DNA of 64,000 bases. It comes from Pirellulales bacterium (GTDB taxonomy: Bacteria; Planctomycetota; Planctomycetia; Pirellulales; UBA1268). The notes under the pieces were generated by a model that was given only the letters and a program-made list of their open reading frames with translations, was not told the DNA's origin and ran no database searches. The stretch is taken from NCBI GenBank assembly GCA_965249545.1, contig CBDFMH010000005.1:897082-961081 (forward strand), given 5' to 3'. How positions within the stretch are numbered: the stretch's first letter is position 1; each line of letters starts with the position of its first letter. This document shows positions 38,474 to 64,000 of this stretch, one piece after another. A program made the translations under genes and the position numbers.

Positions 38474-38485
38474 AGAAAAAGTGCG

Positions 38486-39370: not shown

Positions 39371-39530
39371 TCAATGAGTGGTCGAGGCTCCTGGCGTAGA
39401 GTCTACCGTCCTTTTGACTCCTTTTGAATCGGAAGTACCATCATAGAGCAGGTGTCATTTGTTACGCCTTGCAAGAACAGGTTGAAAATCGAGGGAAGTG
39501 GTTGTTCTTTTTGACGAGGAAAAGTTTTTT

Positions 39531-40358: not shown

Positions 40359-40457
40359 ACGCTGGAAGCGATAGGTGCCTTCTTAGACGTTCATAAGGGG
40401 TGTGTCTTGTGGAAGCCCTTTGTCTTCAGTCACGGAGGATGTTCTTCATTGAATTCT

Positions 40458-41339: not shown

Positions 41340-41389
41340 TGGAAACGTATTTCAGGTAAACCTGAGGGAGACGTAGGAGTCGTATAACA

Positions 41390-42955: not shown

Positions 42956-43015
42956 AAGAAACTGTGTGATCGAGTCTTCAGTGTCTATCACATGAGGAAA
43001 TGAGAGGAAATTCCA

Positions 43016-45012: not shown

Positions 45013-45167
45013 GTGATGGTTGTCACATCACACTTGTATTGTGTAACCCTAGTATTAAGCCCGCGATGACATTTTCTGTCCTGGTGAGACACGAGATCAA
45101 AATTGTGTCAACATAGTGGGTGTACATTGCCACATGTTCCGTGCTTGAAACAGGAAGAGAGAACTCC

Positions 45168-47612: not shown

Positions 47613-47749
47613 GATACAAATCAATGATACTGAAGGGACTGATATTGTTTTCTACAAAGCGTGTTACTGTTTCATACGTTTAAGTAACAACAAATTGGTA
47701 TTTGTGTGAATAAGAAACCGTTCGAGCTTCTCGCACTACTCAAGATACC

Positions 47750-49012
47750 CTAAATATCGAGTGTCCCGGTACTTGATCCAAATTGATCGGACTCAATGCC
47801 CATTGATTGAAGAAGGGATACAAACAGGTTGCATAGAGGAACATTGTCTTTTTTGTTGTGCTGAATAAACCGGCCATGCTTGTGCTTCCCACCGGCCAGA
47901 ATGATCGGAAGATTTCTGGGGTCGTGAGCATTTGCATTTCCTAGGTTGCTGCCAAAGAGAACTGAGGTCTGCTCGAGTAAACCCGATCCATTTTCAGATG
48001 GCTGTTTCAAACCATCAAGGAAATTACTCAAGCACATAAGAATTTCCATTTCAATAATCTTGAGCTGTGTGATTCTCTCCGGGTCTTGTCCATGGTGAGA
48101 AAGAGGGTGATGGCCATCGGACACACCATCAATATTGGGAGTCCCATGGTCACTCTGAATAACAACAGATATCACGCGTGATGAATCTGTCTGGAGAATA
48201 AGTGGAATGAGGTTGAGAAGCGACCGTACACGACCAACTAAATCAGATGGGTCGGCAATATTTTCTGGAGGTGCCGTCTGAACACTGGGTTTCGGTCGAT
48301 CGAGCCATACTTCGGAATTATTTAATTCTGTTTCAGCAACCCGAATGGAGTCAAAATATTGTTCAAGTTGATGTTTATCGGTGCTGGGTGTTGTGCGCTC
48401 TATTGATCGTATCTGCTCAATCACACTATCGAGAATGCTATGGCCATCTGCTAGGCGTTGCCTCTGTTGTCTGATTTCTTTTTGACTTCCACGTAAGAAT
48501 AATTTTGTATACACCTGAGACGGCATATCATCAGCAGGAATCATCACACCGTTTCTTGTGAAAGATTGACTTTTCTTTCTGTTACTACTCAGTGAGACAG
48601 ATGGGTATCTTGTCACATTTCCAATTTTTTCGGCAGCAAACTGATCAATTGAAATCGTGTTTCGAAAACCTCCGAGGCCAGGGTTTCTTGCAGATGTGAG
48701 GAAGGTCATCTCGGTATCGTGAGGATCTTTCCCTACCTGGTCTGGATGTGAAAGACCTGCGAATAGCGTGTACTCCTTGCGATGACGTTGAAGAATGTCT
48801 AGGTATTCGGTGCTTTCGTAGTTGTTACCTGTTGTCGCAGGAAATAAGGACGGTGCATGGAGGCCAAGCGTGTTACAGATACACACCATCCGCTTGGGTG
48901 GTGCCACGTTATTCCCACCAATTGCCATGCTCATGGATTCAAGAAGAGGCAAGGCAACTGTAATTCCAGAAGCTTTTAGTGCTGTGCGTCGTGAGAGCGG
49001 TGTGTGCATCAT
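47750..49012 (-). CDS. DUF1552-domain protein
   Basis: The N-terminal LSRRTALKASGITVALPLLESM, SIDQFAAEKIG and VLFGSNLGNANAHDPRNLPIILAGG are DUF1552 hallmarks. The start overlaps the DUF1592 stop (ATGA). Confidence 0.8.
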   Translation of the reverse strand: MMHTPLSRRTALKASGITVALPLLESMSMAIGGNNVAPPKRMVCICNTLGLHAPSLFPATTGNNYESTEYLDILQRHRKEYTLFAGLSHPDQVGKDPHDTEMTFLTSARNPGLGGFRNTISIDQFAAEKIGNVTRYPSVSLSSNRKKSQSFTRNGVMIPADDMPSQVYTKLFLRGSQKEIRQQRQRLADGHSILDSVIEQIRSIERTTPSTDKHQLEQYFDSIRVAETELNNSEVWLDRPKPSVQTAPPENIADPSDLVGRVRSLLNLIPLILQTDSSRVISVVIQSDHGTPNIDGVSDGHHPLSHHGQDPERITQLKIIEMEILMCLSNFLDGLKQPSENGSGLLEQTSVLFGSNLGNANAHDPRNLPIILAGGKHKHGRFIQHNKKDNVPLCNLFVSLLQSMGIESDQFGSSTGTLDI

Positions 49013-51456
49013 CGATTCCTGAACAGGGGACTTGTAACAACGTGGTGGACAAGACTTCGGAGAGGATATCCGTCGCTTTGTGTCGCAGAAAGAATGCGTT
49101 CGACTTCATCACGATCAGAAAATTCAATGTCACCACCCGTCGCGAAAATGATCAACTGCGAGAGAGTATTTCGTGCAATTTGTTTTGTTGATTCACGAAG
49201 TAATTTGCGATAGTCACGAATGTTTTGGAAAACATCGCCCTCGACTGTGACCCCAGACGTGTTTACACGCGGGCCTGAGTTGTAACTCACTCGCTTTAAC
49301 CGTAATCCAGGTTGAAGACTTTGTTTCATATTTTTACCAATGCGATAGTGCTGCCGGTACGTACCAACCGGATCGAAGCCTTCCATTGCGAAACCTGGTG
49401 GATCGATATGCTGATGACATCTAGCACATGTTTCAACCGACTGATGCTTTAAAAGCATCTGACGAATGGTGGTAGTGCCTCGTGTATCTGGTTCAATTGT
49501 GGCAATGTCTGGCGGTGGTGGGTTTGGTGGGAGCCCCAGCACATGCGTAAGGATAAAATTGCCACGTTTGACGGGCGTTGTGACACTCCCATTTGCAGTC
49601 ACTTTTGCAATTGAGGCATGTCCAAGAATACCGCCTCGAGGGCTCGATGCGTCCAAGGAGACTTTCCTCATCGTTTCGCCGAATACGCCTTTGATGTCAT
49701 AGTGTTCAGCAAGACGGCGGTTCAGGAATGTAAAGTCGGAGTCAATCAGGTTATGGATTGGCAGATTTTCTTTCAGCAGATACGAGAAAAAATCTCGTGT
49801 CTCAGCAAGCATTGCTCGACGTAAGACATCATCATATTCAGGGTACAGTTTTATATCAGGTGTCGTTGCATCAATCTGATCGAGTTCGAACCACTGATCT
49901 GTAAAATCATGAATAAAGAGTTGGTTTTTTTTATCAGCCAAGAGTCGATCTACCTGAGTAGACAGCGTGTTTGAATCAGAGAGCCTTCCCTCGCTCGCTA
50001 ATCGAAGTAACTCTTCGTCAGGAGGGCTTCGCCAGAGAAAATATGAAAGTCGAGAGGCAAGCGCATGGTCGGTTAGCTTCGACTTATTTTTCTGCAAATC
50101 GTTCGTCAGAAGGAGCGTATGTGGAGAAATGAGGATCGCTGTTAATGGAATGCGAGCGCTGGCAAGAAACCCACGCTGGGCTTCGAGGCTCGGAATAGCG
50201 AGATTGGTCAGCTCCGTTATTTCTTTCTTAGTGACTGGTCTTCGGAAGGCTCTGGGGGCAAGCGATGCCACAGCGTCACGAATATGTTGGTAATGAGATT
50301 TTGTTGTAACGGGTCTGTACGATCTTCTATTTACAGTCCGTTCCCATTCAACACCTGGGAACAGGGATCGTGTTCGGCGTGGAGGCCACGTAGTTTCCAG
50401 CGGACCTTCAACAAGCACCTCACGAACCCGTACGCCCTCTCCTTTGAACTCACTTGCAGGTTGAGAGTTGTAAATGAGTTTGCCATCAGGTGCCGGTTCA
50501 AGTTCATCAGCACTGACATAAAAGTAATCATCTGGCCGGAAATAGTGAATCGTTGAAACAGTTCGCATTTTCTCTGTCACATCCCATGCGGCAAAGAGTT
50601 CACTATTACCCTGAATATCATTCTGACGCTTGAGGCTCATGGTCACCGACGAGCGCGGCTGATACGCAGAGCCGGTGACCGTAATCCGATATCGTCCAGG
50701 AGCAGAAAATCGCAGGCCATTTGCATCCGATCGCAGGTTGTGGTTTTCACCACGGAACATGATGAGATCATCATTGTCTCGAAACACTGTGCCACCACCA
50801 CGGCGGACGGGTCGTTCAAACCACATTTGCATGTATCGCGAGTTTGCATAATCAAGCTCACGTTTCATATTTGGTTTTGGACCCAACTCAATTGCTTCAT
50901 CAAGAGCGGCTTCGGCTGCTTTGAGAAAACCTTTCACGTGGACGCTGGACATTTCCTGATTCGCCGCCACGACATCAAACGCTCCTGACTCATCTTCTGG
51001 TGGGAGATATTTTGCAATTTCACCACCTATGCCCAGAAGATCATGGAGCGTATGTTCGTACTCACGGCGTGACAGCCGCCTTGAGGGCACTCTTCCATTC
51101 TGTTTTCGTGCCTGTTTATTTATTTGTGAAAGTTCTTTTTTAAGTGTCGATAATGCGGCATGCCTCGCTTCATCACTTGGCACGAAAGAATCTGGCGGAG
51201 GCATTTCTCGACGCTGAATACGATCGAATATGAGTACCCATTGCTGGAACGCTTCCGGTGACGCGTACGGTTTATCGATGGCGTTTAAGTTCAAATGTGT
51301 CGCTGTCTCTGCATCATGACACGAGACACAGGCTGTTTGAACCAGATTTTCAACTGCATGAAAATCATTTTCCGCATGTACAAACGGCATGTGGGTAGCA
51401 AGCAGATACGCCCATGCGACGAAATACTTTCGGAGAAGATATCGAAATAGTCTCAT
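49009..51456 (-). CDS. DUF1587/DUF1592/DUF1595/DUF1588/DUF1585-type multidomain protein
   Basis: It has an N-terminal CVSCHD (CxxCH) and a C-terminal CARCHQHIDPPGFAMEGFDPVGTYR. The size of 815 aa and the partner DUF1552 downstream fit the known gene pair. Confidence 0.8.
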   Translation of the reverse strand: MRLFRYLLRKYFVAWAYLLATHMPFVHAENDFHAVENLVQTACVSCHDAETATHLNLNAIDKPYASPEAFQQWVLIFDRIQRREMPPPDSFVPSDEARHAALSTLKKELSQINKQARKQNGRVPSRRLSRREYEHTLHDLLGIGGEIAKYLPPEDESGAFDVVAANQEMSSVHVKGFLKAAEAALDEAIELGPKPNMKRELDYANSRYMQMWFERPVRRGGGTVFRDNDDLIMFRGENHNLRSDANGLRFSAPGRYRITVTGSAYQPRSSVTMSLKRQNDIQGNSELFAAWDVTEKMRTVSTIHYFRPDDYFYVSADELEPAPDGKLIYNSQPASEFKGEGVRVREVLVEGPLETTWPPRRTRSLFPGVEWERTVNRRSYRPVTTKSHYQHIRDAVASLAPRAFRRPVTKKEITELTNLAIPSLEAQRGFLASARIPLTAILISPHTLLLTNDLQKNKSKLTDHALASRLSYFLWRSPPDEELLRLASEGRLSDSNTLSTQVDRLLADKKNQLFIHDFTDQWFELDQIDATTPDIKLYPEYDDVLRRAMLAETRDFFSYLLKENLPIHNLIDSDFTFLNRRLAEHYDIKGVFGETMRKVSLDASSPRGGILGHASIAKVTANGSVTTPVKRGNFILTHVLGLPPNPPPPDIATIEPDTRGTTTIRQMLLKHQSVETCARCHQHIDPPGFAMEGFDPVGTYRQHYRIGKNMKQSLQPGLRLKRVSYNSGPRVNTSGVTVEGDVFQNIRDYRKLLRESTKQIARNTLSQLIIFATGGDIEFSDRDEVERILSATQSDGYPLRSLVHHVVTSPLFRNR

Positions 51457-53921
51457 TGGTTTGTAGCTGGAATAGCCTTTGAGGACTCGACAAATGCCAA
51501 AAGGTCAAGAATATCTTCAGCCGTAAAGGTATCGAGCAATCCACTCGGCATGCTGGAAACGTCAGCAACCTTTCGTTCCTCAATCGCTGACTTTTGAATT
51601 CGCTCAATGTTCTCCGGTCGAAGCAGGTTCTGTACGATCTCTACATGGTCCGGTGTTTCATTGACTACTAAGCCAGTCAGAAGACGACCATCATCAACAA
51701 GGATCATCTGTGTTTTAAAATCCTTATGAATCTCTTGAGATGGATTCACAAGCTGCAACAGAAGCTTGCCGCCCTGAAAGCGTTTTGAGACCGCTGTTAG
51801 GTCTGGGCCGTATTTTGCACCCTTTCCTTCAATCGAATGGCACCGGCTACAGGCTGCCTGTTCGAAAACGTATCGGCCATTGTCGAGAGATCGATTCTCT
51901 AAATGATTTGCCTGTGTAATCAGCTCTCGATAATTCTGCTTCCATTTTTTTACAAACTTTCTGGTTGGAATAGCATCCGGCTCGGTACTCCCGACGTGTT
52001 CTAGAATACGAATAAACATTTGGCCATCACGGCTTCGCTTTGGATTCTGGCGTCGGAACTGTTGCCACAACTTGTTCACCTGTTGTCGTTGCGATGAACT
52101 GAGTTCAGTCATCCGTACATCAACATATTCTTGATGATTGTTTCCGTGGTAGGCAGCTGGTAATGGAGATTGACTAATTTTTTGAAACAGGCCCTGATTC
52201 GGAGGCCTGCGTTTTGGTACCACAGCAAGATTACCCACATCATGATTCCCGTCGTATGTTTTTGCGATGAGCTGCGTGCCACCATGTGTTGGCAGCGTGT
52301 CAGGGAACGAAATACGGATCACAGCTCCAACGCCTCGTTCCATATGACGGGCTGGTCCAGATGTACTGGTCCAGACATTGCCTTCATCATCAAATTCAAT
52401 TTCACGTGTGTATGAGACGCGGGTTGGTAAACGGAACTCAACAAGTGTTTCAGTGACGGGGTCAAACCTGTTAATTGTGTCGTTTCCAGTACCACAGACC
52501 CAGACAATGCCGTCCTTATCGATATTTAATGCATACGGAATCTGGTTTTCAGCATCAGGCAACTCGTAGACAGTCCAGCGTTCGGTCGTGGGATCAAACT
52601 TTCCAAATACACCCGACCCAAAGCCAGGAACCCAGACCATGCCATCAGGTGCTACATGAAGCCGACGTGGTCCACGAAAAGGCGGGTTCCACTCTTTGAT
52701 CGCGCCATCATCGACCGACGGGTCAATTCGTCCAATCCGGTTGCCATTGAGCTTGGAATACCAGATCATTCCATCGACGGGAGAAAAATCGATGCCATAG
52801 GGTGTAATGCCTCGTGACTCACCACGACCAGCGGCAGTCGCCTGACCAGCATCAAGGAGTTTGTATTCTTTGACGACGTGTGTTGTTGGATGAATCGAAA
52901 AACATGAATTGGAGCCGGCATCGGTGTACCAAATCAATCCTTCAGGATCACTCGGATTGATTCGTAATGTATGTGGGTAATTCCCACGTGTCTTTGGTGC
53001 CTCCGCACTGCTGTAGGTTTCAAATTGCTCAGTATTGAAATCAAAGCGAACCATCTTGCCACTTGCACACATGGTCGTCCACAGGCTTCCATCATTGGCT
53101 GTTTCAATTGAATGAGGGCCGTAGGCTCCTTTCGGATATTTGTACGTTGTTTGCTCACCCGATTCGGTATCAAGTGCAATCAACTTTCCGTTTTGAATGT
53201 TGACCGCATAGACTCTTCCATCACGGCCAAGTTCCAGATCATGAAACGATCCTTGGAGCAGTTCATCCATTTCCCACATTGTTATTGTGGCAGCAGCAGC
53301 AAGCCCTGTTGGAGCTGGTGGTGGCACAAAAGTTGGCCATTGTTTGACGGCGTCTCCTTTGTACGTTTCCATCAGTCGAGGAATGATGGTTTCTTTTGTA
53401 TGTGGAAACAGCCCACCGAATCCATCCATTCGCCTGAGCATGGTCTCCCAGTCAACAGGCTCTTCTGGAGTTCGAAAACCCACGGTTCCAACTTGATGGC
53501 AGTAGGAACACATCATTTTGAAATTGAGCTTGGCATGTGAATCCTCAAAATCCAACATGCTGAAGGCACTGTTTGCCGGTCGCTGTAATTCGAGCTCTTC
53601 ACCAACTGCTGGGCGTGTCTGGATGTGAAGATTATCTGTGTTCGCAGACACGCTGCTCAGCCAGGTATCTGCGAGCCCCATGAGGCGAGTACGGAGCCGA
53701 TAATTACAGTTCCTGAGCCCATCAATGGTAAAAGAGCCATCCGGTTTGGTGAATACAGATGTCCATTTTCGATGCTCAGTGTCAATTGCTGAAACCATGA
53801 CACCTTCAACGGGCATGCTCTTTTCATTGACGACAGTCCCTTGAATCGTTGCTGCTTGGCTGAAAGCGCAACTGAGCAGTACTGTAAGACTAGAGCAAAA
53901 TAGAACCACACTTTTTTTCAT
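51453..53921 (-). CDS. Multidomain secreted protein: carboxypeptidase-regulatory-like domain, CxxCH, beta-propeller (Vgb-lyase-like), conserved ~70-aa module, C-terminal Pirellula-type haem-binding domain
   Basis: Features in order are a signal peptide, TIQGTVVNEKSMPVEGVMVSA, MCSYCH, and repeated propeller blades (DGSLWTT, EGLIWYTD, DGMIWYS, DGMVWVP, DGIVWVC, EGNVWTS). The C-terminal part has ACSRCHSIEGKG...SSMPSGLL...EDILDLLAFV. The ORF is open to 53963. Confidence 0.8.
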   Translation of the reverse strand: MKKSVVLFCSSLTVLLSCAFSQAATIQGTVVNEKSMPVEGVMVSAIDTEHRKWTSVFTKPDGSFTIDGLRNCNYRLRTRLMGLADTWLSSVSANTDNLHIQTRPAVGEELELQRPANSAFSMLDFEDSHAKLNFKMMCSYCHQVGTVGFRTPEEPVDWETMLRRMDGFGGLFPHTKETIIPRLMETYKGDAVKQWPTFVPPPAPTGLAAAATITMWEMDELLQGSFHDLELGRDGRVYAVNIQNGKLIALDTESGEQTTYKYPKGAYGPHSIETANDGSLWTTMCASGKMVRFDFNTEQFETYSSAEAPKTRGNYPHTLRINPSDPEGLIWYTDAGSNSCFSIHPTTHVVKEYKLLDAGQATAAGRGESRGITPYGIDFSPVDGMIWYSKLNGNRIGRIDPSVDDGAIKEWNPPFRGPRRLHVAPDGMVWVPGFGSGVFGKFDPTTERWTVYELPDAENQIPYALNIDKDGIVWVCGTGNDTINRFDPVTETLVEFRLPTRVSYTREIEFDDEGNVWTSTSGPARHMERGVGAVIRISFPDTLPTHGGTQLIAKTYDGNHDVGNLAVVPKRRPPNQGLFQKISQSPLPAAYHGNNHQEYVDVRMTELSSSQRQQVNKLWQQFRRQNPKRSRDGQMFIRILEHVGSTEPDAIPTRKFVKKWKQNYRELITQANHLENRSLDNGRYVFEQAACSRCHSIEGKGAKYGPDLTAVSKRFQGGKLLLQLVNPSQEIHKDFKTQMILVDDGRLLTGLVVNETPDHVEIVQNLLRPENIERIQKSAIEERKVADVSSMPSGLLDTFTAEDILDLLAFVESSKAIPATNQ
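51984..52196 (-). other. Conserved ~70-aa module, copy C (between propeller and haem-binding domain)
   Basis: QGLFQKISQSPLPAAYHGNNHQEYVDVRMTELSSSQRQQVNKLWQQFRRQNPKRSRDGQMFIRILEHVGST. Confidence 0.7.
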
Positions 53922-53991
53922 GGCATCTTTCCCACCAAGGCAAAAAACTCGTTTGGTTTTCATAGTATCCTCTCACAATCAGATAGTGCAG

Positions 53992-56900
53992 TTAGTTGTT
54001 TTTGTTTTCACCAATGCAGTACAGATACTGCCGGCCCCGCAAATAAAGGCAGTCGCCTACTGGTACAGGTGAGGCATTAAATTCATCATCAAGTTTGTTC
54101 GTAGCAACAACATTCAATTCATTTGTGTGTTTGAGTACGACAATAGCACCAGTTCGGCCGGCAAAATAAACATGGCTGTTGGCACCAACAGGAGACGCAT
54201 AGATATTTTGAATATCAGGCAGGCGTGTTCGTTCGATGATTGCTTCACCAGTGGTGACATTTAAAGAAGTAAGAATTCCCTTGTTGGATTGGGTGAAATA
54301 CAACTGGTCATCAAATAGGAGTGGAGATGGAATGTATGGAGTTCCTTTGTCGCCTGACCAAACAACTGCAGAACTTCCAGAAACATCACCCTTCGAATCA
54401 AGTTTTAAAGCCATGACAGAGTGGCCTTCATAGCCGCTCATGCAGATGACCATGTCGTTATAGATGACTGGTGAAGGCGTAACGTTGCCGGTCAATCCAC
54501 TGCATTGCCAAATGACCTCTCCGGTATCAAGGTCGTAGCTGCGAATGAAATTTGAAGCTGCTGTGATAACCTGCGTTCGTTCACCATCTTTTGTAAAGAT
54601 TTTAGGTGTTGCCCATGCATTTTTCTCATCGCGGGTACGTTTCCAGACGGTTTGACCGGTTGCAGCTTCAAGGACCTCTATCGATGATTGGCCAGAATGA
54701 TCACGGACGATAATAATTCGTCCATGATGAAGGACAGGAGAGCATCCTTCACCGAGGCTGGCTCCGACGCGAACTTCTCCAAGGTCCCGTTTCCAGAGCA
54801 ATGTTCCATCAAGGCTGTAGCAGTACATCCCTGCAGAGCCAAACCAGCAGTACAGTCGTTCTCCATCAGTCACCGGTGATGCACAGGCAAAGTCGGCATG
54901 GTGATGAGAGCCTTCATGGGGAACTTTTTCAGTTGCAGTCTGTTGCCAGAGCGTTTTTCCAGTGAACCGGTTCAAACAAAGAACTTCAAACCGAAAAACA
55001 GTATTCGGGAATGTAATGCCGAAAACCCGCTCAGGCTGTTCTTCTGGAGGTGGCAGGCTTGGATCAACAACTTTGGTATCAACGGCTGTCAGAACAAATA
55101 TCTTGTCATCCCACACAATGGGAGAAGCGTTACCCTGTCCTTCAATCGGTACTTTCCAGCGGATGTTGTTTTCTTCACTCCACGTGACAGGAGGTGAAGC
55201 AGTTGCACTCATGCCAGTAGCTTCTGGCCCTCGCCATTGATGCCAGTAGCGTTTTGTTTTCTCAAGAAAAGCTTTTTGTTCGCGAGGGAATTGGTAATTG
55301 CTGTCTGCAAACGTGTCATTTCTTGTCAGCGTATCTTCACTTTTGTGCTGTTTTCCTGATGACTGGACGTAATCCAATATTTTGACAAAGAGCTGTCCTT
55401 TATTGACGCCCTCATTCTGTTCGGTGCTGGCCTTTTTCCAAAGTTCTCCCAGACGTGTTCGTTGCTTCGGTGACAATTTTTTCATTCGTTCATCAACGTA
55501 GGATTGATGATTTGAGCCACGGTAGCCACGAGGAATTGGGCGTTGCGATATCTTCTTGAGAATGTCTTGAGATGATGATTGAACACGCTGACCTTTCTCA
55601 GGATTCTGTTTCGCTTTTCCCTGTTTGTTTTCTGTTCCAGTTTGAGCAGACCAGTCCGGTGCATCGGCCATAATATCCTTGTAGAGCGCCAGCAGCTTTT
55701 TCTTGAGACGCTCAGTGACTTTCGGACGTTGCTTTGAGATGTCCTTCTTTTGTTGCGGATCAGTTTTTAAGTCGTACAGTTCGAACCGGCTAAACCCGCC
55801 TGCCTTGATCGTTGGAATCCACGCTTCCTGGAAGGTCCGTGCACGAACGAACTCACTCTTCAGCCGGTTGTATTCGGGGCTGGAGAAGGTGGTGTTGGTG
55901 ACGCGGGAACCCAGGTTGGGCGCCCGCGGATTGATGCCTGCCAATCTGGCCAGCTTCTGCTGCAATTCATTTTTCTTGGCATTATTCGCGTAGGCAATTT
56001 GTAATCAGAGTAGCCCATCAGCGTGTAATCCCCTTCACGCAAGGTAGCGAGATGACCCGATGACGGTGAAAGCCACAACAGGGGTTGCGATCGATTCAAG
56101 TCACCTTTCTCGATGAGCAACGGTGAAAGGTCAGCGCCATCAAGGTGCACGCCTTTGGGTTTATCGATACCGGTCAGGCCGCAAATCGTTGGCAGTAAAT
56201 CAACCGAGCCTGAAGGTGTGTCTTCAGTACGACCGCCTCGAAAACCATTCGGCCAGAAGAAAATACCCGGAGATCGTAATCCACCTTCAAATTTCGATCC
56301 TTTGGCACCAGTCAATCCACCATTTCGATCAGCCCGATAACTTCCGTGGTCTGAGGAGTAAATAATGAAGGTGTTGTCCAGCTTGCCTGTTTCTTTGAGC
56401 TTTGCAACGAGTCGTCCAATGGCTCGATCGGTGTTATCGACTGTGGCCGAATAGATTGCGGCTTCATCCTTGAGGTCGCCGTAGATCGAGGTGATCTCAT
56501 CAGGCGCCGCCAGTTTGGAGTGAGGCTCATTGAACCACATGTTCATGAAGAACGGTTGATCCGGATTCTTCTTCTCGTCTAACCAGCGGATCGCATCGTC
56601 CACGATCAACTGACACGAATAGCCTTTCAGCGGTCCGACTCGTTTGCCGTTGCGCATAAAGTTCGTAGGATCCTTATGGCTTGGGTTGGCTCCGTTGGAG
56701 AGCCCGAACCAGTAGTCAAAACCGTGCTGCTGAAGCGTAGGTTTTTTTCGTTTGCCTGAGGTCATCCCGACGTGCCACTTGCCGAAGTGGGCCGTTCCAT
56801 AACCAGCCTGTTGCAACACTTCTGCGATCGTCACTTCGCGTTCCAGCAGATGCATGTCGTGCATGTGATCCTGCAGAACGCTGTAAATACCAGTGCGGAG

Positions 56901-57158
56901 ATTCTGCCTTCCGGTAAGGAGAGTCGCCCGCGATGGCGAGCAGACTGCTGCCCCGGCGTGAAAGTCGGTGAACTTGACCCCACGCGCTGCCAGGTTGTCG
57001 AGCACTGGTGTTTTGACTGGCCCGCCATAACAGCCGAGATCCTTTGATCCAAGATCATCGGCCAGCAGAATGACTACGTTGGGCTTGGATTGCTTTTCTT
57101 CAGCTGAAGCAAACGTAGCCAGCATCAGGAAGCATAAAAATGTGTGGATAGGTTTCAT
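53992..57158 (-). pseudogene. Sulfatase, ~70-aa module and PQQ-like beta-propeller fusion gene, disrupted by a frameshift near 55990-56000
   Basis: ORF 55860-57158 encodes a sulfatase catalytic domain (signal peptide, CSPSRATLLTGR, GKWHVG). ORF 53992-55965 begins with the missing sulfatase C-terminal subdomain (FSRFELYDLKTDPQQKKDIS), collinear with the paralog at 57168-59069. It continues into an 8-bladed PQQ/BamB-like propeller. Confidence 0.7.
55357..55569 (-). other. Conserved ~70-aa module, copy B (between sulfatase and PQQ-like propeller)
   Basis: QDILKKISQRPIPRGYRGSNHQSYVDERMKKLSPKQRTRLGELWKKASTEQNEGVNKGQLFVKILDYVQSS. Confidence 0.7.
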
Positions 57159-57167
57159 AGTATTTAC

Positions 57168-59069
57168 TCAGTTCGTGTTTCCTTTTTCAACGTCTCCGGT
57201 CTCTCCCTTACCTCCGGAAATGTAAGTGAGAATTTTGACGAAAGAGGCTCCCCGATTGGTCATGTTTGGATAGAGAATGCGTTTTTCTTTCCAGAGTTTA
57301 CCGACCCGTGCGCGTTGTTTGGGTGTGAGACCAGCCATGACCTTGTCAACGTAGGCCTGGTGGCTGCTTCCTTGGTAGCCGTCTGGAAGGGAATTCTTTT
57401 CGATGCGAGCCAAGAGGTCCGCGGTTTTCGAACTCGATGTCTCGGCGATGGGCCGTTGTAACGCGTTTCCCCGGGGCTTCTTCGCTGCGGTCAGATCCTC
57501 TGGGGTGACATATTCCGGTCCATCGGTCATGACACTTGTGTGGATGAGGTTGGCCTGCTTTTTCATGTGTGCGATGAGCCTGGGATGCTTTTTCGAAATG
57601 TCGTTTTGCTGACCGATATCCTTCGAGAGGTCATAGAGCTCAACCCGATCGACACCTCCTTTTTTCATGAGAGGGATCAAAGCTTCATTAAAGTAGAACA
57701 AGGACCGAAATTCATCGCGCAGCCGGTTGGCTTCTGGATTGGCAAATCGGCCGTTGAACATGCGGGACCGCAGATCCAATCCGCCCAGTTCCTTTTCAAT
57801 GTTGTCCCCAAGAGCAGTCTTGGTCTGCTGCAGCAAACGGTTCGCCTTGGCACTATCAAAAGGGAGTCTGACTGTGCTCGGCGCCAAAAGGGTGTGGCTA
57901 CCCATTCGAAGCGCCATGGTGGAGCCGTTCATCCAGAAAAGCGGCTGATGACGTTCAAAATTACCTGTTCCGGTGAGCAAAGGAGTGAGGTCTGAACCGT
58001 CGAGGAAGACGTTCTTAGGTTTCTCGATGCCAAGAAGCCCACAGATGGTGGGAAGCAGGTCAACGGCTCCAGCAGGCTCTTTCTCAACGCGACCACCAAT
58101 GATCTTTCTTTTCCAGTAGAAGATCCCCGGCACTCGGTGGCCGCCTTCATAATGTGATCCCTTTTTGCCGCGCAGTTCCCCGCTGCGCTCTTGTCGGTAG
58201 CTACCGTTATCGGAGGAGTAGTGAATGATCGTGTTATCGAGCTCGCCGAGTTCTTTGAGCTTGTTGATGAGTCGCCCGATGGCACGGTCTGTATTGTCGA
58301 TGGTGCCGTTGTAGATGGCAGCCTGATCGTTCAGCGAACCATATTCGGAGACGATCTCGTCGGGGGCTGCAATGACGGCGTGAGGTTCATTGAACCAAAT
58401 ATTGATGAAAAATGGTGCGTCGGTTCCATGTTTGTCGATCCAGTCAATAGCTTCATCGACAACGAGCTGGCAGGAGTAACCTTTCATGGGCCCAACGGGT
58501 TTACCGTTGCGCAGAAAGTTGGTGGGATCTTTGTGACTCGGATTAGCACCATTGACCAGGCCGAACCAGTAGTCGAATCCATGATCGGACGGGGTGGGAT
58601 TGCTGCGCCCGTTAACAGGCATGCCGAGATGCCACTTGCCAAAGTGAGCGGTGCCGAAGCCTTCGCCTTTCAGGACCTCGGCGAGTGTCGTTTCACTCCG
58701 AAGGAGATGCATTTTGTGACGCTGTTCACTGAGGACGGAATAGACTCCGGCACGGATGTGGTTACGGCCAGTGAGAAAAGTGGCACGGGAAGGAGAGCAG
58801 ACCGGTGCCCCGGAGTGGAAGTCAGTGAAGCGCACGCCTTCGGCAGCCAACGTGTCAAGTACCGGTGTATTGACTGGCCCCCCGTAACAGCCAATGTCGC
58901 GGTAGCCGAGGTCGTCAACGAGGAGGGTGATGACGTTTGGTGGTTTTCGGTTGCTCTTTGTAGTGGAAAACGTCTTTCCATTTTGTTTCTGAGATGGCCG
59001 AGGTAGTCGGTCATTTTTGTTCCAGTCGCATAGCTTCCGGACTGTGTGTTTTTGTTTTTTGGGAGCCAT
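57168..59069 (-). CDS. Sulfatase (S1, Cys-type) with C-terminal ~70-aa conserved module
   Basis: Motifs are VITLLVDDLGYRD, CSPSRATFLTGR, GKWHLG, SSDNGS and VELYDLSKD. A C-terminal extension ends in the shared module. Confidence 0.9.
   Translation of the reverse strand: MAPKKQKHTVRKLCDWNKNDRLPRPSQKQNGKTFSTTKSNRKPPNVITLLVDDLGYRDIGCYGGPVNTPVLDTLAAEGVRFTDFHSGAPVCSPSRATFLTGRNHIRAGVYSVLSEQRHKMHLLRSETTLAEVLKGEGFGTAHFGKWHLGMPVNGRSNPTPSDHGFDYWFGLVNGANPSHKDPTNFLRNGKPVGPMKGYSCQLVVDEAIDWIDKHGTDAPFFINIWFNEPHAVIAAPDEIVSEYGSLNDQAAIYNGTIDNTDRAIGRLINKLKELGELDNTIIHYSSDNGSYRQERSGELRGKKGSHYEGGHRVPGIFYWKRKIIGGRVEKEPAGAVDLLPTICGLLGIEKPKNVFLDGSDLTPLLTGTGNFERHQPLFWMNGSTMALRMGSHTLLAPSTVRLPFDSAKANRLLQQTKTALGDNIEKELGGLDLRSRMFNGRFANPEANRLRDEFRSLFYFNEALIPLMKKGGVDRVELYDLSKDIGQQNDISKKHPRLIAHMKKQANLIHTSVMTDGPEYVTPEDLTAAKKPRGNALQRPIAETSSSKTADLLARIEKNSLPDGYQGSSHQAYVDKVMAGLTPKQRARVGKLWKEKRILYPNMTNRGASFVKILTYISGGKGETGDVEKGNTN
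57210..57422 (-). other. Conserved ~70-aa module, copy A (C-terminus of sulfatase 57168-59069)
   Basis: ADLLARIEKNSLPDGYQGSSHQAYVDKVMAGLTPKQRARVGKLWKEKRILYPNMTNRGASFVKILTYISGG. Confidence 0.7.
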
Positions 59070-59078
59070 TTTTTTAGT

Positions 59079-60527
59079 TCACATATCTGTGTATCGCGTG
59101 TCATTGGCGAGGTTCTTCCACTGATTGGGGTCTTTGGTGGCATCGTAGAGCTCCTCATCACCGGCGCTATAACGAATGTAATGCCAATGCTTGGAACGGA
59201 CTGCGTGGTCTCCACGTAGGCTGACTACGGCCGGATTGGGCCATTTTGTTTTCGGATGAAGAAGGAGTGGTGCGATACTACGTCCATCGAGTCTGTCGCG
59301 GGCTGGCAATCCACAGAGCTCGACCAGTGTGGGGTAGAGATCTACGAGGCTGACCGGTTGCTGGCATTGTTTGCCACCAGTCGCTGCCAAGTCTGGAGTG
59401 GAAATGATAAGCGGCGTTTTCGAACCTTGTTCCCATAGCGTTAGCTTGGAGATGCGGTCTTTTTGGCCAATGTGAAAGCCATGGTCGCCCCATAAGACGA
59501 TGATTGTATTATCGGCGTACTTACTTTTTTCCAATGCATCCAGAACAACTCCAACACAGGCATCCGCGAATGAGCACGAAGCGAGGTACCCTTGAACCGC
59601 TTTTTTCCATTCCCCATGTTCACGGATAACGCCAAAGGCCTGGCTTCCACCAGAGCTTTGTCGACGTCCACTTGGCGGCACGTCAGCTAAATCATTTTCA
59701 AGGGTGGCCGGTAGCTTTATTTTCTCCAAGGGATGCATGTCGAAGTATTTCCGCGGCGCATACCAGCGGAGGTGCGGGCGAAAGATACCGCAGGCCAGGA
59801 AGAAGGGCTTGTCGTGATCGCGCAGCAGGAACGCAGCGGCGCCTTCGGCGGTCTTTCTGTCGGCTGTCTCCCTGTCCGGAATGTCAAGTGGCTGCCAATC
59901 TGCCCAATCTTGGTAATACTCTTGTGCCATCTTGTCACTCAATCCATGCAGGAGACGACCATTTTTTGGAAACGGTGTTCCATGCTTGGTCGAATATTGA
60001 TGATTCCAAGAGACAGGGTCAGAGAACTTGCCACTGGGTTTATGAAAGATCTTGCCTCCCATTACCGCTGTGTACCCATGCTGACGAAAGTACTGTGGGA
60101 TCGTCACCAAGTCATGGAATTCTGGCTTGTCGCGGAACCATGAAATAGCATCGCCTTGACCATACCTGCCTTCGTTACTCCAGATATCGATTGTTGATGA
60201 CCGCAAGCCTGTCATCGTCGCCATTCGTGAAGGGTTGCACAAAGGCGCCGAGCAATAGGCCTGTTCGAACAGCATTCCGCGTGATGCAAGCCGATCTATA
60301 TTTGGAGTTTTTGCTTGAGGATGTCCTCCTAAACAACCAATCCAGTCATTTAAATCATCGACGGCGATAAACAGGACGTTCGGCCTGGCTGTTTTCGCGC
60401 CAGCATAAGCCTGTTGCTGAAAAGAAACAAACATGAAGAAGTGAAGTGCGATCAACAGTTTCGGAGCGAATTGCCTTGTTTTCGCTGTGATCTTGATAGA
60501 AAAACGTTTCATTTCACTTCTCAGCAA
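59079..60527 (-). CDS. Sulfatase (S1, Cys-type)
   Basis: Motifs are PNVLFIAVDDLNDW, CNPSRMATMTGL, GKIFH, WGDHGFHIG and DEELYDATKDPNQWKNLA. Confidence 0.9.
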   Translation of the reverse strand: MLRSEMKRFSIKITAKTRQFAPKLLIALHFFMFVSFQQQAYAGAKTARPNVLFIAVDDLNDWIGCLGGHPQAKTPNIDRLASRGMLFEQAYCSAPLCNPSRMATMTGLRSSTIDIWSNEGRYGQGDAISWFRDKPEFHDLVTIPQYFRQHGYTAVMGGKIFHKPSGKFSDPVSWNHQYSTKHGTPFPKNGRLLHGLSDKMAQEYYQDWADWQPLDIPDRETADRKTAEGAAAFLLRDHDKPFFLACGIFRPHLRWYAPRKYFDMHPLEKIKLPATLENDLADVPPSGRRQSSGGSQAFGVIREHGEWKKAVQGYLASCSFADACVGVVLDALEKSKYADNTIIVLWGDHGFHIGQKDRISKLTLWEQGSKTPLIISTPDLAATGGKQCQQPVSLVDLYPTLVELCGLPARDRLDGRSIAPLLLHPKTKWPNPAVVSLRGDHAVRSKHWHYIRYSAGDEELYDATKDPNQWKNLANDTRYTDM

Positions 60528-60547
60528 TGTGTTGGAGACAAAGGTGC

Positions 60548-61504
60548 TTATTTTGGTGCATCTTCAAAATGTGGATACCGATAGTCTGCTTTGTCATTTG
60601 TCGAAACCTTATGCGTTGACCCATCTTCGGGTTTGTAGATATAAAGTTTGCCGCCTGCGTGATAAACGATTGAGGATTCGTCTTTCGACCAACGCGGGTA
60701 TGCAAACCAGACCTGTTTCTCTTGCTCGTTTGCAAACGGCTGTGCGTTGGTTATCGTGCAGCTCGTTGCATCAAAATCTGCAACGTATAGCGTGCGTCCG
60801 GGGACTTGCCGCTTGAAGCCTCGTTGAAACTCAAAGCAGACTCTTGTTTCGGTTGGTGACAGACTGACTCGGTCAAGTACCCCCGTTTGTGCCAAGTCAC
60901 ACTCGATGCGTTCGAATGTCGGATTGGTATTCTTTCCGGGTGTCATCAGGTAGTACCCCATGCCTTGGTCGGTCGGATTCGATCGAACGAGAATCCGTCC
61001 ATCAGTAAGACACGTGTAGGCCCAGGTGTGATGTCCTGTGCTGGTGAGAGCGACTTCTTCTCCTGGTTTTGCACCAACCTTGCTGGCCATCACCACGTAA
61101 CCACCCGTTTGTGGTCTCTTTCGATTCCAGATCGGTGTATTTGTCCCGTCGCGGGTCCAGGTTTGATTGAAGTCCGTATGGGTACCGTCGGTCAATTGAT
61201 GCAGCCCGGTTCCATCGGCATGAATGATGTGTATTGCAGTTTTCCATTTCGAAACGTCAGGATCGTTTTTCAATCTCCGAAAAAAGACCAGCATGTCTCC
61301 CGTCTTCGACCACGAAGGCTTGAAGTCGTTGTGTCCATCAGTCAGTGGCTTATTCTCTAACGCACCATAGGTGTTCACATGGATTTCACCATTCACGTAA
61401 TACGAACCTCGACTAGTTGTCTCATCTGCTGTTGCTTTGTTGCATACGGTGATCTGCATACAAATCAGTGATAGGAAGCAGAACATTGTGAATATGGATT
61501 GCAT
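60548..61504 (-). CDS. PD40/TolB-like beta-propeller protein
   Basis: After a signal peptide there are repeated PD40-like units: FKPSWSKTGDMLVFF, FNQTWTRDGTN and AYPRWSKDESSIVYH. Confidence 0.55.
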   Translation of the reverse strand: MQSIFTMFCFLSLICMQITVCNKATADETTSRGSYYVNGEIHVNTYGALENKPLTDGHNDFKPSWSKTGDMLVFFRRLKNDPDVSKWKTAIHIIHADGTGLHQLTDGTHTDFNQTWTRDGTNTPIWNRKRPQTGGYVVMASKVGAKPGEEVALTSTGHHTWAYTCLTDGRILVRSNPTDQGMGYYLMTPGKNTNPTFERIECDLAQTGVLDRVSLSPTETRVCFEFQRGFKRQVPGRTLYVADFDATSCTITNAQPFANEQEKQVWFAYPRWSKDESSIVYHAGGKLYIYKPEDGSTHKVSTNDKADYRYPHFEDAPK

Positions 61505-61513
61505 GGTTATTTT

Positions 61514-62434
61514 TCAGTCACTGCTTTTGATGTTTTGTTCTTTCATTTCACATACAACTCGAAAGCCGGCAAGATACTCGGGCCTAAAGTGCGATCCTCC
61601 AGAAATGTGTCGCGTTGCCGAGCGAACATCCTGTGCGTTGCTACTAAATCCCCCACCACGCCAAACGTGTAAGCGTCCTTTCTCAGGCCCCTTTGGGTCG
61701 GTGGTGACTTTCTTTATCAGTGTTGTGGGATAGAGGTCGTACTTGTCACTGCACCACTCGCACACGTTGCCGTGCATGTCATAAAGCATCCAGTGATTCG
61801 GTTTTTTTAAACCCCATGGATGCGGATACTGCTCCTTGGCCTTATAGGCATTGTTGAAATACCAGCCATAGTCATCAAGCTTGAAGGGTTTGTTTCCAAA
61901 GTAAAACGCTGTTACCGTGCCGCCGCGGCAGGCATATTCCCATTCGGCTTCGGTTGGCAGCCGGTAGACCCTGCCTTCTTTTTCACTCAAGCGTTTACAA
62001 AATCCTGTAGCTTTTTTGTGAGAAACATACGTAGCAGGAGTGTTTACCGATTCTTTTGTCAAAGGTTCGTCAAGCCAAGGCGTTTCATCCATCACCATGA
62101 TGTAGTGTTCTTGAGTTACCTCAGAGACACTCATGAAAAATGGTGTCGAAATCTGAACTCGATGCAGTGGAGATTCATCTTTCGTGTTGGACCACTTCAC
62201 TTTGGTGTCTGAAGACGTACCCATCTGAAACTCACCAGATGGAATTGGAACAAAAATGAGACCAATTGAATTCTCAAATGCTTGACCGGTCTCACGCTGC
62301 TCCGGTGCTAATGAAGATGCAATAAAACTGAGGCTTGGCGAGGGCTCAGAGCATCCCGCAAGTAAACTAACGGTGAAGCAGAGTGAAACGAGTCCACTCG
62401 TGCGTTGAAGAGTACACCTTTGGAAGGGAGCCAT
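61514..62434 (-). CDS. Formylglycine-generating enzyme (FGE/SUMF1) family protein
   Basis: YRLPTEAEWEYACRGG, HGNVCEWCSD and VWRGGGFSSNAQDVRSATR are FGE-sulfatase domain signatures. A lipoprotein-like signal is present (LLAGCS). Confidence 0.88.
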   Translation of the reverse strand: MAPFQRCTLQRTSGLVSLCFTVSLLAGCSEPSPSLSFIASSLAPEQRETGQAFENSIGLIFVPIPSGEFQMGTSSDTKVKWSNTKDESPLHRVQISTPFFMSVSEVTQEHYIMVMDETPWLDEPLTKESVNTPATYVSHKKATGFCKRLSEKEGRVYRLPTEAEWEYACRGGTVTAFYFGNKPFKLDDYGWYFNNAYKAKEQYPHPWGLKKPNHWMLYDMHGNVCEWCSDKYDLYPTTLIKKVTTDPKGPEKGRLHVWRGGGFSSNAQDVRSATRHISGGSHFRPEYLAGFRVVCEMKEQNIKSSD

Positions 62435-63420
62435 TAAAACTCTCCTACAACTTCACCACTATTTCGGGTATGAATTTTTTGCCATATTCCTCGTTGCTCT
62501 GCGGGTCCACAATTATTTTGAGCGCCTTTGAAATCAATACTTTCTGTCACATATCTGGTAGAGGCATCGGCCATCAAAAACTGTGTTCCACCTGGGTGTT
62601 GGCTTCGCGCCGTCATCTGTCCCGTTGACTGACTGTCGTAGCAGCCCATGGGTGGCGTGCCAAGTGATCCAGATACAGCACAGTTTTCCATATCATCTGA
62701 GTATGGCTGGCGGCTGTTTGGTCGGCTTGCATCGTTGTACATGGCGGCGGTTCCGCTCCCTAACCCCGGCATGGCCCAGCATCCCCGAAGATCATTTTTG
62801 TTCAGGCCTGCTCGCAATTCATTGATCGCTACCGTGTTCGATGTGCCATCACGAAAATCTCGGATACGGATCGAAGAATTGACTGCACCAAACCCACCGT
62901 CAGACTGATTGTCTTGTATGCCATGATGACACGGTGAAACATTCATTCCATAATTTCCACGAGCCCAGTTGCCACCCGCATAGGCACATAGTTCACCGCT
63001 CGAACTCGAATCAGATGGGCAAAGAAAGGCAGTGATTTGTTCCGATCGCTGAGGATTTTGATGTGGGGGGAGATCAAAGTCCCACTGATCGTAGATCACG
63101 CTTTGTTCCATATAGGGAAGAATAAGAACGCACCAATTTGCACTCTTACCAGTTTGATCAGCGATTCGTGTATCGTTTCCTCCTGAGCTGGTAAAAAACG
63201 GAGGGAATGAACGATTTGCATCATGGTAGTTATGAAGCGCGAGACCGATCTGCTTTAAATTATTTTTGCATGACAGCATTCGAGCAGACTCACGTACTTG
63301 CTGTACGGCTGGTAGAAGAAGGCCTATAAGAACTCCAATAATGGCAATAACAACAAGGAGCTCAATGAGCGTGAATGCACGATGATGCGTCATGCGTGAA
63401 TCATTGTTGGTAGATCTCAT
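62434..63420 (-). CDS. DUF1559 protein with prepilin-type N-terminal cleavage/methylation domain
   Basis: [55 protein letters not shown] is the DUF1559 leader. The ORF is open to 63453, and ATG 63420 or 63393 are likelier starts. Its stop overlaps the FGE ATG by 1 nt (TAATG). Confidence 0.88.
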
Positions 63421-63487
63421 TTCGGATACGTGCCTTTTTTCATGAGTAAGCATCTGTTGATATAGATATTTCTAGATGATGCTCATC

Positions 63488-64000
63488 TTATTTCCCCGGA
63501 ATTAATTCTACTTCATGGACCGTGAGCCCACTTGAGCTCCCCGTATTTGTAAATACCCAGAGCCGATCGAGATAGAGCCCATCAGGCGTGCGTGCCAACG
63601 AGTCTTGTTTTTTACGAACACATGGATCAACGGTAAAGTTGCTGAGTTGATAGATGACCTCAAACTCTTTTTGTTCAGCGATTTCAGAAACAGGTTGTTT
63701 TTTCAATAAGTCTCCACGAAACATTCCGGCAAATTCACCATTGCCATATGACACAGCAATACCAAAGTGAACTTGTGCCGAATCATGCAGTCGACCACGA
63801 ACACGGAACGTAGCATGCGGAGTGAGAACAACAGGTGGTCCGCTCCGCCCAGAAACAGGAATTGATAAGAGCGACAGGCTCACGTTTGGATTGTTAACTG
63901 GAATGAATGGAAGAGCCTTTTGAGCAGCTGGTCTTTTTTTTGTTGCCGAAAGCCACTTTCCAAACCCTCCAGCCTGTACATCCAGCTGACTCTTCCAATA
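63488..64000 (-). CDS. Hypothetical protein, 5' end beyond the window edge
   Basis: The reading frame stays open from 63883 to the right edge; I translated it by hand and found no stop. No motif was recognised. It lies on the same strand 34-94 nt upstream of the DUF1559 gene. Confidence 0.5.
   Translation of the reverse strand, partial: YWKSQLDVQAGGFGKWLSATKKRPAAQKALPFIPVNNPNVSLSLLSIPVSGRSGPPVVLTPHATFRVRGRLHDSAQVHFGIAVSYGNGEFAGMFRGDLLKKQPVSEIAEQKEFEVIYQLSNFTVDPCVRKKQDSLARTPDGLYLDRLWVFTNTGSSSGLTVHEVELIPGK

Follow-up and report, generated by a model that had tools for sequence, protein, structure and literature searches.

Organization of the array

We analysed a 64,000-nt stretch of contig CBDFMH010000005.1 from a Pirellulales bacterium (hereafter, the window), and in particular a run of ten minus-strand genes between position 47750 and its right edge that encodes sulfatases, propeller proteins, c-type haem proteins and a DUF1592/DUF1552 protein pair (Table 1). 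A first-pass annotation, made from the sequence alone, had described the run as a co-directional ten-gene array, and the open reading frame (ORF) map confirms this: all large ORFs from 47750 to the right edge lie on the minus strand. Related contigs are designated by L numbers and the representatives of protein searches by P numbers. For sequence beyond the right edge we used L002, a 662-kb metagenome contig 99.5-99.8% identical to the window.

The junction lengths reported earlier match those that we read directly from the sequence, and the two junctions previously given as ranges settle at 34 and 28 nt. The gaps of the array run from -4 to 34 nt with a median of 9 nt. Since most same-strand gaps elsewhere in the window are ~40-120 nt long, the array is packed more tightly than its surroundings. 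Scans with sigma-70 promoter and intrinsic-terminator consensus sequences found no promoter-like and no terminator-like site in any gap of the array, and the minus-strand matches were all intragenic and fewer than in shuffled sequence. The operon-like packing is thus real. The array had, however, been taken to end at the DUF1552 gene, and an eleventh co-directional gene comes shortly after it.

Pfam assigned the products to DUF1559 with N_methyl, FGE-sulfatase, Sulfatase (three genes), PQQ_2, Vgb_lyase/SGL with Cytochrom_C, PSD3/PSD5/PSD4/PSCyt3/PSD2, and DUF1552. Regular-expression counts gave three CxPxR sulfatase signatures and exactly four CxxCH haem motifs, one pair each for the haem/propeller and DUF1592 proteins, in line with the three Cys-type sulfatases and four motifs noted before. 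Because every product except the damaged sulfatase B (see below) bears an export signal (Sec, lipobox, prepilin leader or Tat), the chemistry would take place outside the cytoplasm.

Table 1. Features of the array and its surroundings. Positions refer to the window; gaps were read from the sequence and run to the next gene downstream, with negative values for overlaps.
Feature	Position	Strand	Gap (nt)	Basis or remark
FecR-domain anti-sigma, last 170 codons	63488..64000	-	34	gene runs past window edge
DUF1559 / H-X9-DG prepilin-type protein	62434..63453	-	-1 (TAATG; FGE-like start on DUF1559 stop)	Pfam, NCBIfam
FGE-fold lipoprotein, lipobox LAGC	61514..62434	-	9	Pfam; no catalytic Cys pair
Secreted PD40/TolB-like protein	60548..61504	-	20	one weak Pfam repeat
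Sulfatase A, Cys-type CNPSR, SGSH_C domain	59079..60527	-	9	Pfam, motif
Sulfatase B, Cys-type CSPSR, C-terminal HQxYVD module	57168..59069	-	9	Pfam, motif
Sulfatase C (CSPSR)-HQxYVD module-BamB/PQQ_2-like propeller	53992..57158	-	28	one gene of ~1,054 codons, frameshifted
Haem/propeller protein	51453..53963	-	-4 (ATGA)	CarboxypepD_reg, Vgb-lyase-fold propeller, HQxYVD module, TIGR02603
DUF1592-family protein PSD3-PSD5-PSD4-PSCyt3-PSD2	49009..51456	-	-4 (ATGA)	Pfam, two CxxCH
DUF1552 (HXXSHH) protein, twin-arginine leader	47750..49012	-	125	Pfam
Eleventh gene, GH50-like, secreted	46473..47624	-		downstream of DUF1552
HQxYVD module, haem/propeller protein	~51993-52190	-		between propeller and C-terminal cytochrome
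HQxYVD module, fusion gene	~55366-55563	-		between sulfatase and propeller
HQxYVD module, sulfatase B	~57219-57416	-		C-terminus
GH10-like gene	31652-33565
Alginate-lyase-domain gene	34191-35444
GH29 alpha-L-fucosidase	35475-36980
Sulfatase	36998-38473
SGL lactonase-like gene	40407-41339
Further sulfatase	24998-27028
Second DUF1559 prepilin-like gene	21973-23058
ABC ATPase	21005-21757			far from array
Long signal-peptidase S26 protein	19118-20953
ROK protein	14927-15985			far from array

A core of the array is conserved across genera

Related loci were scanned with one genome per species, which gave 80 loci from Pirellulales and Planctomycetales; the window proteins were mapped onto them by tblastn, and loci of the near-identical clade were left out of the counts below. 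In 50 of 54 loci, the haem/propeller gene is preceded on the same strand by a sulfatase B-like gene. Downstream of the haem/propeller gene a DUF1592 orthologue follows in 37/44 loci, and in all but one of these 37 the next gene is DUF1552 (36/37). FecR and extracytoplasmic function (ECF) sigma factor genes are found upstream (19/36 and 14/36, respectively), and a PQQ-like propeller gene either separates the sulfatase gene from that of the haem/propeller protein (10/54 loci) or follows DUF1552 (17/33). PD40 and sulfatase A genes are present in 10 and 12 of 36 loci.

A conserved gene order in relatives was the check that the first-pass annotation had named for its proposal, and the core order is indeed kept across genera. 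The DUF1592 and DUF1552 orthologues are 56-76% identical and those of the haem/propeller protein 63-80%; random paralogues would not be so alike. This core comprises a sulfatase, a BamB/PQQ-like propeller, the haem/propeller protein, DUF1592 and DUF1552, usually with the sigma and FecR genes first, and the rest is a variable shell in which DUF1559, the FGE-like gene, PD40 and sulfatase A are accessory. The claim that all ten genes form one dedicated machine did not hold, since L002 is without PD40 and two of the sulfatases, and the DUF1559 and FGE-like genes occur in only 5/36 and 4/36 distant loci. No further gene family recurs in 72 related loci, and this includes glycoside hydrolases, lyases and transporters; the GH50-like gene beside DUF1552 is confined to the window's own clade.

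More than 900 homologues share 64-73% full-length identity with the haem/propeller protein. Carriers of the cluster include Stieleria bergensis (with two copies), strain SH139, and metagenome-assembled genomes (MAGs) of Rubripirellula, Fuerstiella, Mariniblastus and Rhodopirellula. We found no description of the cluster, its regulator or the module described below in the literature.

Two side observations came out of the scan. In many loci of the Rubripirellula type and in other distant ones, the haem/propeller gene is directly followed by another PQQ-like propeller gene, a divergent one (24-33% identity) that mostly comes before DUF1592 (L013, L016-L018, L024, L028-L029, L033, L036, L046-L047, L051, L057, L060-L061, L070, L079, and L082). 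One 3-kb contig labelled Gammaproteobacteria (L010, JAAGZL010000428.1) is 97% identical to the haem/propeller gene of the window and is almost certainly a binning error.

A 66-residue module and gene fusions link the sulfatases to the propeller proteins

A 66-aa segment with the pattern (L/I)P..Y.G..HQ.YVD..M..L...QR.....LW...G..F..IL, here called the HQxYVD module, is present in three copies in the window. It has no Pfam match and is modelled as a confident helical bundle, with a predicted local distance difference test (pLDDT) score of ~80-86. Among the related loci, the module was found in every haem/propeller orthologue that reaches the region and in ~35 upstream sulfatases; no other protein there had it. 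When 1.84 billion representative proteins were searched with a profile of the module, only 126 clusters came up, in which the longer matches were sulfatases, PQQ_2 propellers and proteins combining CarboxypepD_reg with Vgb_lyase. The module looks like an undescribed domain specific to the cluster.

The same protein types are also joined by gene fusion. Sulfatase and PQQ-like propeller are fused in the window and in L002, and P0331 (1,661 aa) unites a PQQ_2 propeller, the module and a Vgb-like propeller protein in one chain. Because fusions join the PQQ-like propeller to the sulfatase on the one hand and to the haem/propeller protein on the other, all three would be expected to act together. 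The rare module and the natural fusions give independent support to a functional link between sulfatases, propellers and haem proteins.

A sigma/anti-sigma head and a shared promoter motif

The ORF at the window edge, previously listed as unknown, is the C-terminus of a 461-aa FecR-domain anti-sigma factor that is complete in L002; its last 170 codons are identical to those in the window. In L002 an ECF sigma factor gene (Sigma70_r2 and Sigma70_r4; 8045-8584) is followed by the gene for this FecR-domain membrane protein (8581-9966). The NCBIfam anti-sigma and FecR matches fall below their cut-offs. The ORF lister gave the edge gene as a 131-aa ORF with a GTG start (63488-63883); the frame is open to the window edge, and the listed start is unreal.

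The reported absence of a regulator is therefore an artefact of the window edge, the ECF sigma gene lying just beyond it. The broader statement that the window has no TonB-dependent receptor, SusC/D, ABC transporter or regulator stands for the first two, as no SusC/SusD or TonB-dependent transducer domains were found in the scanned window proteins, but not for the others: an ABC ATPase, a ROK protein and FecR are present. The ECF sigma and FecR-like head recalls the polysaccharide utilization loci of Bacteroidota that are under ECF sigma/anti-sigma control, as do the co-directional exported sulfatases and degradative proteins. In contrast to those loci, the planctomycete cluster lacks SusC/SusD and a TonB-dependent transducer, and its core has haem proteins and no glycoside hydrolase.

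Comparison of the sequences 5' of the sigma genes revealed a two-box ECF-type motif, TGTCCACGAT-N13/14-GGT(T/A). When a moderately strict pattern, GTCCA[CT][GA]A-N13-16-GGT[AT], was scanned over 1.29 Mb of loci, it matched 42 times, 39 of them on the gene strand, versus 4.3 +/- 1.7 times in shuffles. Eight matches lie 35-260 nt upstream of an ECF sigma gene and 19 lie 37-219 nt upstream of the haem/propeller gene; three more are upstream of PD40 and at least two upstream of sulfatases. Such a distribution is the pattern expected of an autoregulated ECF sigma factor and its targets, and we predict that these promoters depend on the sigma factor. Examples from many genera include L019 9558, L023 2276 and 9875, and L040 2553.

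In the window lineage the only good copy of the motif lies 5' of the sigma gene (L002 7785), ~1.67 kb past the right edge of the window; projected from L002, the start of the sigma gene would fall near window-equivalent 65409 and the motif near 65669. Inside the window array, only intragenic matches with two mismatches were found. Given the tight spacing and the sole good motif before the sigma gene, the ~17.6 kb from sigma through DUF1552 are probably transcribed as one unit in this lineage. In other genera, the motif before the haem/propeller gene implies at least two sigma-dependent units.

The haem/propeller protein

From its N-terminus, the haem/propeller protein is composed of a signal peptide, a CarboxypepD_reg domain, the first CxxCH (53496-53510), a seven-bladed propeller, the HQxYVD module and a cytochrome c domain with the second CxxCH (51837-51851). 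Both haem motifs are retained in 68/68 orthologues, the first site, CSYCH, is invariant, and the propeller region holds very many invariant His, Asp, Glu, and Arg residues. The propeller is modelled with a pLDDT of ~75-88, and a Foldseek comparison matches it to virginiamycin/streptogramin B lyase (Vgb; 2QC5, 2Z2N) with an E-value of 2e-16 and a target TM score of 0.85-0.88.

The likeness to Vgb covers the seven-bladed fold and the blade sequence motif. The haem/propeller protein differs in being ~2.8 times longer and exported, in its two haem c sites, its CarboxypepD_reg domain and its module, and in the positions of Vgb His270 and Glu268, which, together with His228, we take to be the catalytic residues. 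In the register that sets His331 on His228, the next blade places Tyr389 and Thr387 at His270 and Glu268, respectively, repeat registers in such propellers being ambiguous.

The C-terminal 127 residues match residues 189-315 of 7ZS0, which form its second haem domain (E 1e-16), and score 102 bits with TIGR02603 against a cut-off of 68. The 7ZS0 structure is a dihaem cytochrome c of Kuenenia stuttgartiensis with haem potentials of ~ +350 mV (PMC11791136). Only one of the two haem domains of the haem/propeller protein matches this 'PVC-type' haem-binding domain.

The DUF1592 and DUF1552 proteins

The PSCyt3 and PSD2-5 domains correspond to DUF1588, DUF1585, DUF1587, DUF1592 and DUF1595, and Studholme and colleagues reportedly first defined the PSCyt/PSD domains in Rhodopirellula baltica in 2004. 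In the DUF1592 protein of the array the PSD3-PSD5-PSD4-PSCyt3-PSD2 series is preceded by an N-terminal CxxCH, and two CxxCH motifs are present in 42/44 orthologues. The DUF1552 protein has many invariant histidines and a leader, SRRTALK, whose R8 and R9 are invariant in 25 sequences and whose pattern is matched in 31 of 38 orthologues from the loci. Upstream of the sigma gene and divergent from it, L002 3856-7427 holds a second PSCyt3/PSD protein (with a CBM60 domain) and another DUF1552 gene, followed by ThuA.

In freshwater Verrucomicrobia MAGs, He et al. (2017) described PSCyt3 genes adjoining a gene family of unknown function, often with sulfatase genes near, and stated that nothing is known of function (PMC5615132). 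Those pairs have the same domain architecture, with a directly adjacent, overlapping DUF1552 gene and sulfatases nearby. They amount to a general neighbourhood tendency only, whereas the window pair is an orthologous and conserved component of one defined cluster, together with a particular dihaem propeller protein, an ECF sigma/FecR head and a promoter motif.

A further relative is Cbp2D of Cellvibrio japonicus (CBM2, X158, FN3, X183, DUF1587, X132), whose knockout markedly slows growth on cellulose and whose X183 cytochrome domain transfers electrons and can reduce lytic polysaccharide monooxygenases (LPMOs) (Branch et al. 2021, PMC8981238). Like the DUF1592 protein, it is exported and multi-domain, with DUF1587/PSD3 and two single-CxxCH cytochrome domains. 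Cbp2D has, in contrast, a carbohydrate-binding module (CBM) and a YceI-like domain, and its proposed acceptor is an LPMO; the likeness lies in a shared Pfam domain. Pfam found no LPMO, CBM or YceI-like domain in the window array.

The sulfatases and their lesions

All three sulfatases match PF00884 (1e-44 to 1e-65) and have the C-x-P-x-R signature and the N-terminal DD metal ligands. The signature reads CNPSR in sulfatase A and CSPSR in sulfatases B and C, and Cys occupies its first position in 58/58 sulfatase B-like orthologues. The nearest solved structures for sulfatase A are 6HHM and iduronate-2-sulfatase; those for sulfatase B are carrageenan sulfatases as well as aryl- and steryl-sulfatases. 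An exact-match look-up of sulfatase B found no record.

The domains of the sulfatase-propeller gene are as first annotated, but a 2-nt insertion near 55986-55988 splits the gene and leaves ORFs 55860-57158 and 53992-55965, with a 106-nt overlap. L006 and L011 do not have the insertion and read YKLPANNAKKNELQQ in frame, the L006 ORF running uninterrupted for 1,099 codons. A programmed frameshift at 55986 was considered and rejected because the site is not slippery and the insertion is missing from these two contigs. The lesion is either a strain-specific, pseudogenising mutation or an assembly error. The propeller half gives a PQQ_2/BamB-type Pfam match (4.5e-23), and its NCBIfam matches are to BamB. 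Quinohaemoprotein dehydrogenases combine an eight-bladed, PQQ-binding propeller with a cytochrome c domain in one enzyme; here the cytochrome domain sits on a different polypeptide, although P0331 joins PQQ_2 and Vgb-like propellers.

A second lesion affects sulfatase B. Its N-terminus, MAPKKQKHTVRKLCDWNKND... (region 58920-59069), has no hydrophobic leader, while all of its orthologues have a classical signal peptide and start MK(P/T/S)ILTLL...FAN. The original 5' end seems to have been exchanged, perhaps in the rearrangement that brought in PD40 and sulfatases A and B. Sulfatase A looks intact. Sulfatase function needs export and an intact frame, and two of the three window sulfatases (B and C) lack one or the other. 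The window copy of the cluster may be partly decayed, or both lesions may be sequence errors.

A comparison with L002 (11950-15111 versus window 53992-61504) reveals a strain-level structural polymorphism. L002 encodes DUF1559, the FGE-like protein, a single intact sulfatase-PQQ fusion of 1,053 aa, the haem/propeller protein, DUF1592 and DUF1552. The fusion is a hybrid: the N-terminal part shares 93.5% identity with sulfatase B of the window, and the C-terminal part is that of the window fusion.

The accessory proteins

The FGE-like protein had been annotated as a sulfatase maturase. It matches FGE-sulfatase (PF03781, 1.6e-39), a domain common to the formylglycine-generating enzyme FGE (SUMF1) and to relatives that are not FGEs (PvdO, Tvp1, GldK/PorK). 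Human FGE relies on Cys336 and Cys341, its catalytic, copper-binding pair. The aligned residues of the window protein are Ser265 and Val270, and the pair is likewise lost in 8/8 readable cluster orthologues, which have WRGGGF[SA]xN..RSAxR. Unlike SUMF1, the window protein carries a lipoprotein signal and is closest to non-FGE proteins: its best solved relatives are T. denticola Tvp1 (2Y3C) and PvdO, and weak relatives include the type IX secretion system ring protein GldK/PorK. On these sequence comparisons it should not be called a maturase.

The neighbouring protein was correctly annotated as type IV pilin-like, with an N_methyl segment (PF07963; TIGR02532) and a DUF1559 body (SBP_bac_10, PF07596, 1e-54; TIGR04294) that includes H-X9-DG. 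Together with the FGE-like lipoprotein it makes up an accessory pair. A second DUF1559 prepilin-like gene of the window lies beside the ABC ATPase gene and that for a long signal-peptidase S26 protein.

Of the three propellers proposed earlier, the PQQ-like and Vgb-like ones are upheld by Pfam, but the PD40 label rests on one sub-threshold repeat (E 0.003). The PD40-like protein belongs to a large family found throughout PVC bacteria, in which it is 65-81% identical; a sequence search of the PDB returned nothing meaningful, and its homologues carry only names such as "PD40 domain-containing". Ankyrin repeats, unexpected for exported proteins, are fused to many of these homologues (P0418-P0484) and also to module-bearing sulfatases (P0260, P0288).

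A proposed role for the cluster

On balance, we lean towards the view that marine Pirellulales and Planctomycetales share a conserved cluster under ECF sigma control, in which exported desulfation would be joined to a haem step, and that the array is the form it takes in the window lineage. The ECF sigma factor and its membrane FecR-type anti-sigma would switch the cluster on, and the Cys-type S1 sulfatases would act on a sulfated organic compound, most likely a glycan or oligosaccharide of algal origin, and remove its sulfate esters. The product of desulfation would then pass to the BamB/PQQ-like propeller and the Vgb-fold dihaem protein, tied to the sulfatase by the 66-aa module and the fusions. 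The dihaem DUF1592 protein and the translationally coupled, Tat-exported, His-rich DUF1552 protein would complete a four-haem relay linking the substrate to a metallo-enzyme or the respiratory chain. The GH50-like, GH29, sulfatase, lyase-like, and GH10-like genes in the neighbourhood point to a sulfated algal compound as the probable substrate, but only as context, since the conserved core has no glycosidase. Gene order, conservation, promoter motif, export signals, haem motifs, module and fusions are observed; along with the substrate, we infer the inducing signal, the single transcript, the direction of electron flow and the catalytic roles of DUF1552, the propellers, DUF1559 and the FGE-like protein.

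Several points weigh against this view. No glycoside hydrolase, lyase or transporter recurs in the clusters, which makes a polysaccharide substrate a guess, and aryl- and steryl-sulfatases are among the nearest solved relatives of sulfatase B, besides carrageenan sulfatases. Two of the three window sulfatases look impaired, by the frameshift and by the lost signal peptide, and gene content differs even between near-identical strains. Planctomycete genomes are very rich in paralogous sulfatases, DUF1559 proteins and PSCyt pairs, so the accessory genes may be mere neighbours. In the best sequence register, Vgb His270/Glu268 are replaced in the haem/propeller protein. As for DUF1552, considered here as a candidate for an alkaline-phosphatase/sulfatase-type fold, its AlphaFold2 model, built from a 25-sequence alignment, reaches a pLDDT of 41, too low to use, a profile search of the PDB gave noise and no match, and hhalign against the window sulfatases gave a probability of 1.2% with the first strand region alone aligned.

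A more specific form of the proposal, which we put forward only tentatively, is that a sulfatase/PQQ-like/Vgb-fold complex held together by the HQxYVD module desulfates an algal compound and then oxidises or oxidatively cleaves it, with electrons moving through the four c-type haems to or from a DUF1552 metallo-enzyme or the respiratory chain. If true, this would be the first functional assignment for PSCyt3/DUF1552 pairs, which are among the most expanded unknown families of Planctomycetota and Verrucomicrobiota. The association of sulfatases with planctomycete-specific cytochromes was already known; here it takes the form of a defined cluster with a regulator, a promoter motif and a shared module.

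The promoter motif itself lends some weight to a different account, in which one regulon serves two unrelated jobs: sulfatases, PD40 and the PQQ-like propeller would see to desulfation, the haem/propeller, DUF1592 and DUF1552 proteins would form a separate haem set, and the two sets would act on different molecules and be uncoupled. Most genera repeat the motif right before the haem/propeller gene, giving it a transcription unit separate from the sulfatase. Many upstream sulfatases, of a class with ~50% identity, lack the shared module, and PSCyt3/DUF1552 pairs without sulfatases occur throughout these genomes, as with the second pair in L002. The near-constant presence of a sulfatase upstream (50/54 loci), a module common to sulfatases and haem/propeller proteins and almost confined to both, and the sulfatase-PQQ and PQQ-haem/propeller fusions nevertheless make two separate jobs rather unlikely. 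We consider it improbable that the cluster is an envelope-maintenance or stress regulon, with the ECF sigma factor sensing envelope damage and the exported enzymes remodelling the cell's own sulfated surface glycans or holdfast. ECF sigma/anti-sigma pairs are generally known as classical regulators of such responses, the pilin-like DUF1559 protein and the FGE-fold lipoprotein with its weak GldK/PorK relationship are present, and neither a transporter nor a glycosidase recurs in the cluster. FecR-type anti-sigmas, however, are generally known to sense specific ligands, catabolic carbohydrate-active enzyme genes abound around the window array, and most loci are without DUF1559 and the FGE-like gene.

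There might also be no functional unit at all, only a chance run of expanded families in a compact genome. Paralogues are abundant enough for this (within the window there are two DUF1559 genes and, with the gene split into two ORFs counted once, five for sulfatases), and near-identical strains vary in gene content. Yet orthologues at 56-80% identity keep their synteny across genera, the shared promoter motif is enriched about ten-fold with 39/42 matches on the gene strand, and a cluster-specific module and fusions link the proteins. For the core, synteny, motif, and fusions already largely refute such an accident, which we regard as very improbable. DUF1559, the FGE-like gene, PD40, sulfatase A and the GH50-like gene are possible chance neighbours.

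The proposed coupling of desulfation to a haem step matters because PSCyt/PSD proteins and their DUF1552/DUF1501 partners are highly expanded in Planctomycetota and Verrucomicrobiota, and the cluster offers a defined handle on them: an orthologous PSCyt3/DUF1552 pair that travels with a specific dihaem propeller and a sulfatase under its own ECF switch. This switch would open PSCyt/DUF1552 function to direct testing in culture: Stieleria bergensis SV_7m_r and strain SH139 carry the cluster, and Rubripirellula tenax Poly51 has a DUF1552 orthologue. To our knowledge, marine planctomycetes lack SusC/D systems, and such work would show how they arrange and regulate the breakdown of sulfated organic matter.

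Neighbourhood of the array

The eleventh gene encodes a secreted protein of 383 aa without a Pfam match, which bears a remote resemblance to GH50 beta-agarases (4BQ4, E 5e-11). Next to it, a glycan-degradation island (31652-46397) adjoins the array, where subtilase, ThuA-like and DUF3500 genes accompany the genes listed in Table 1.

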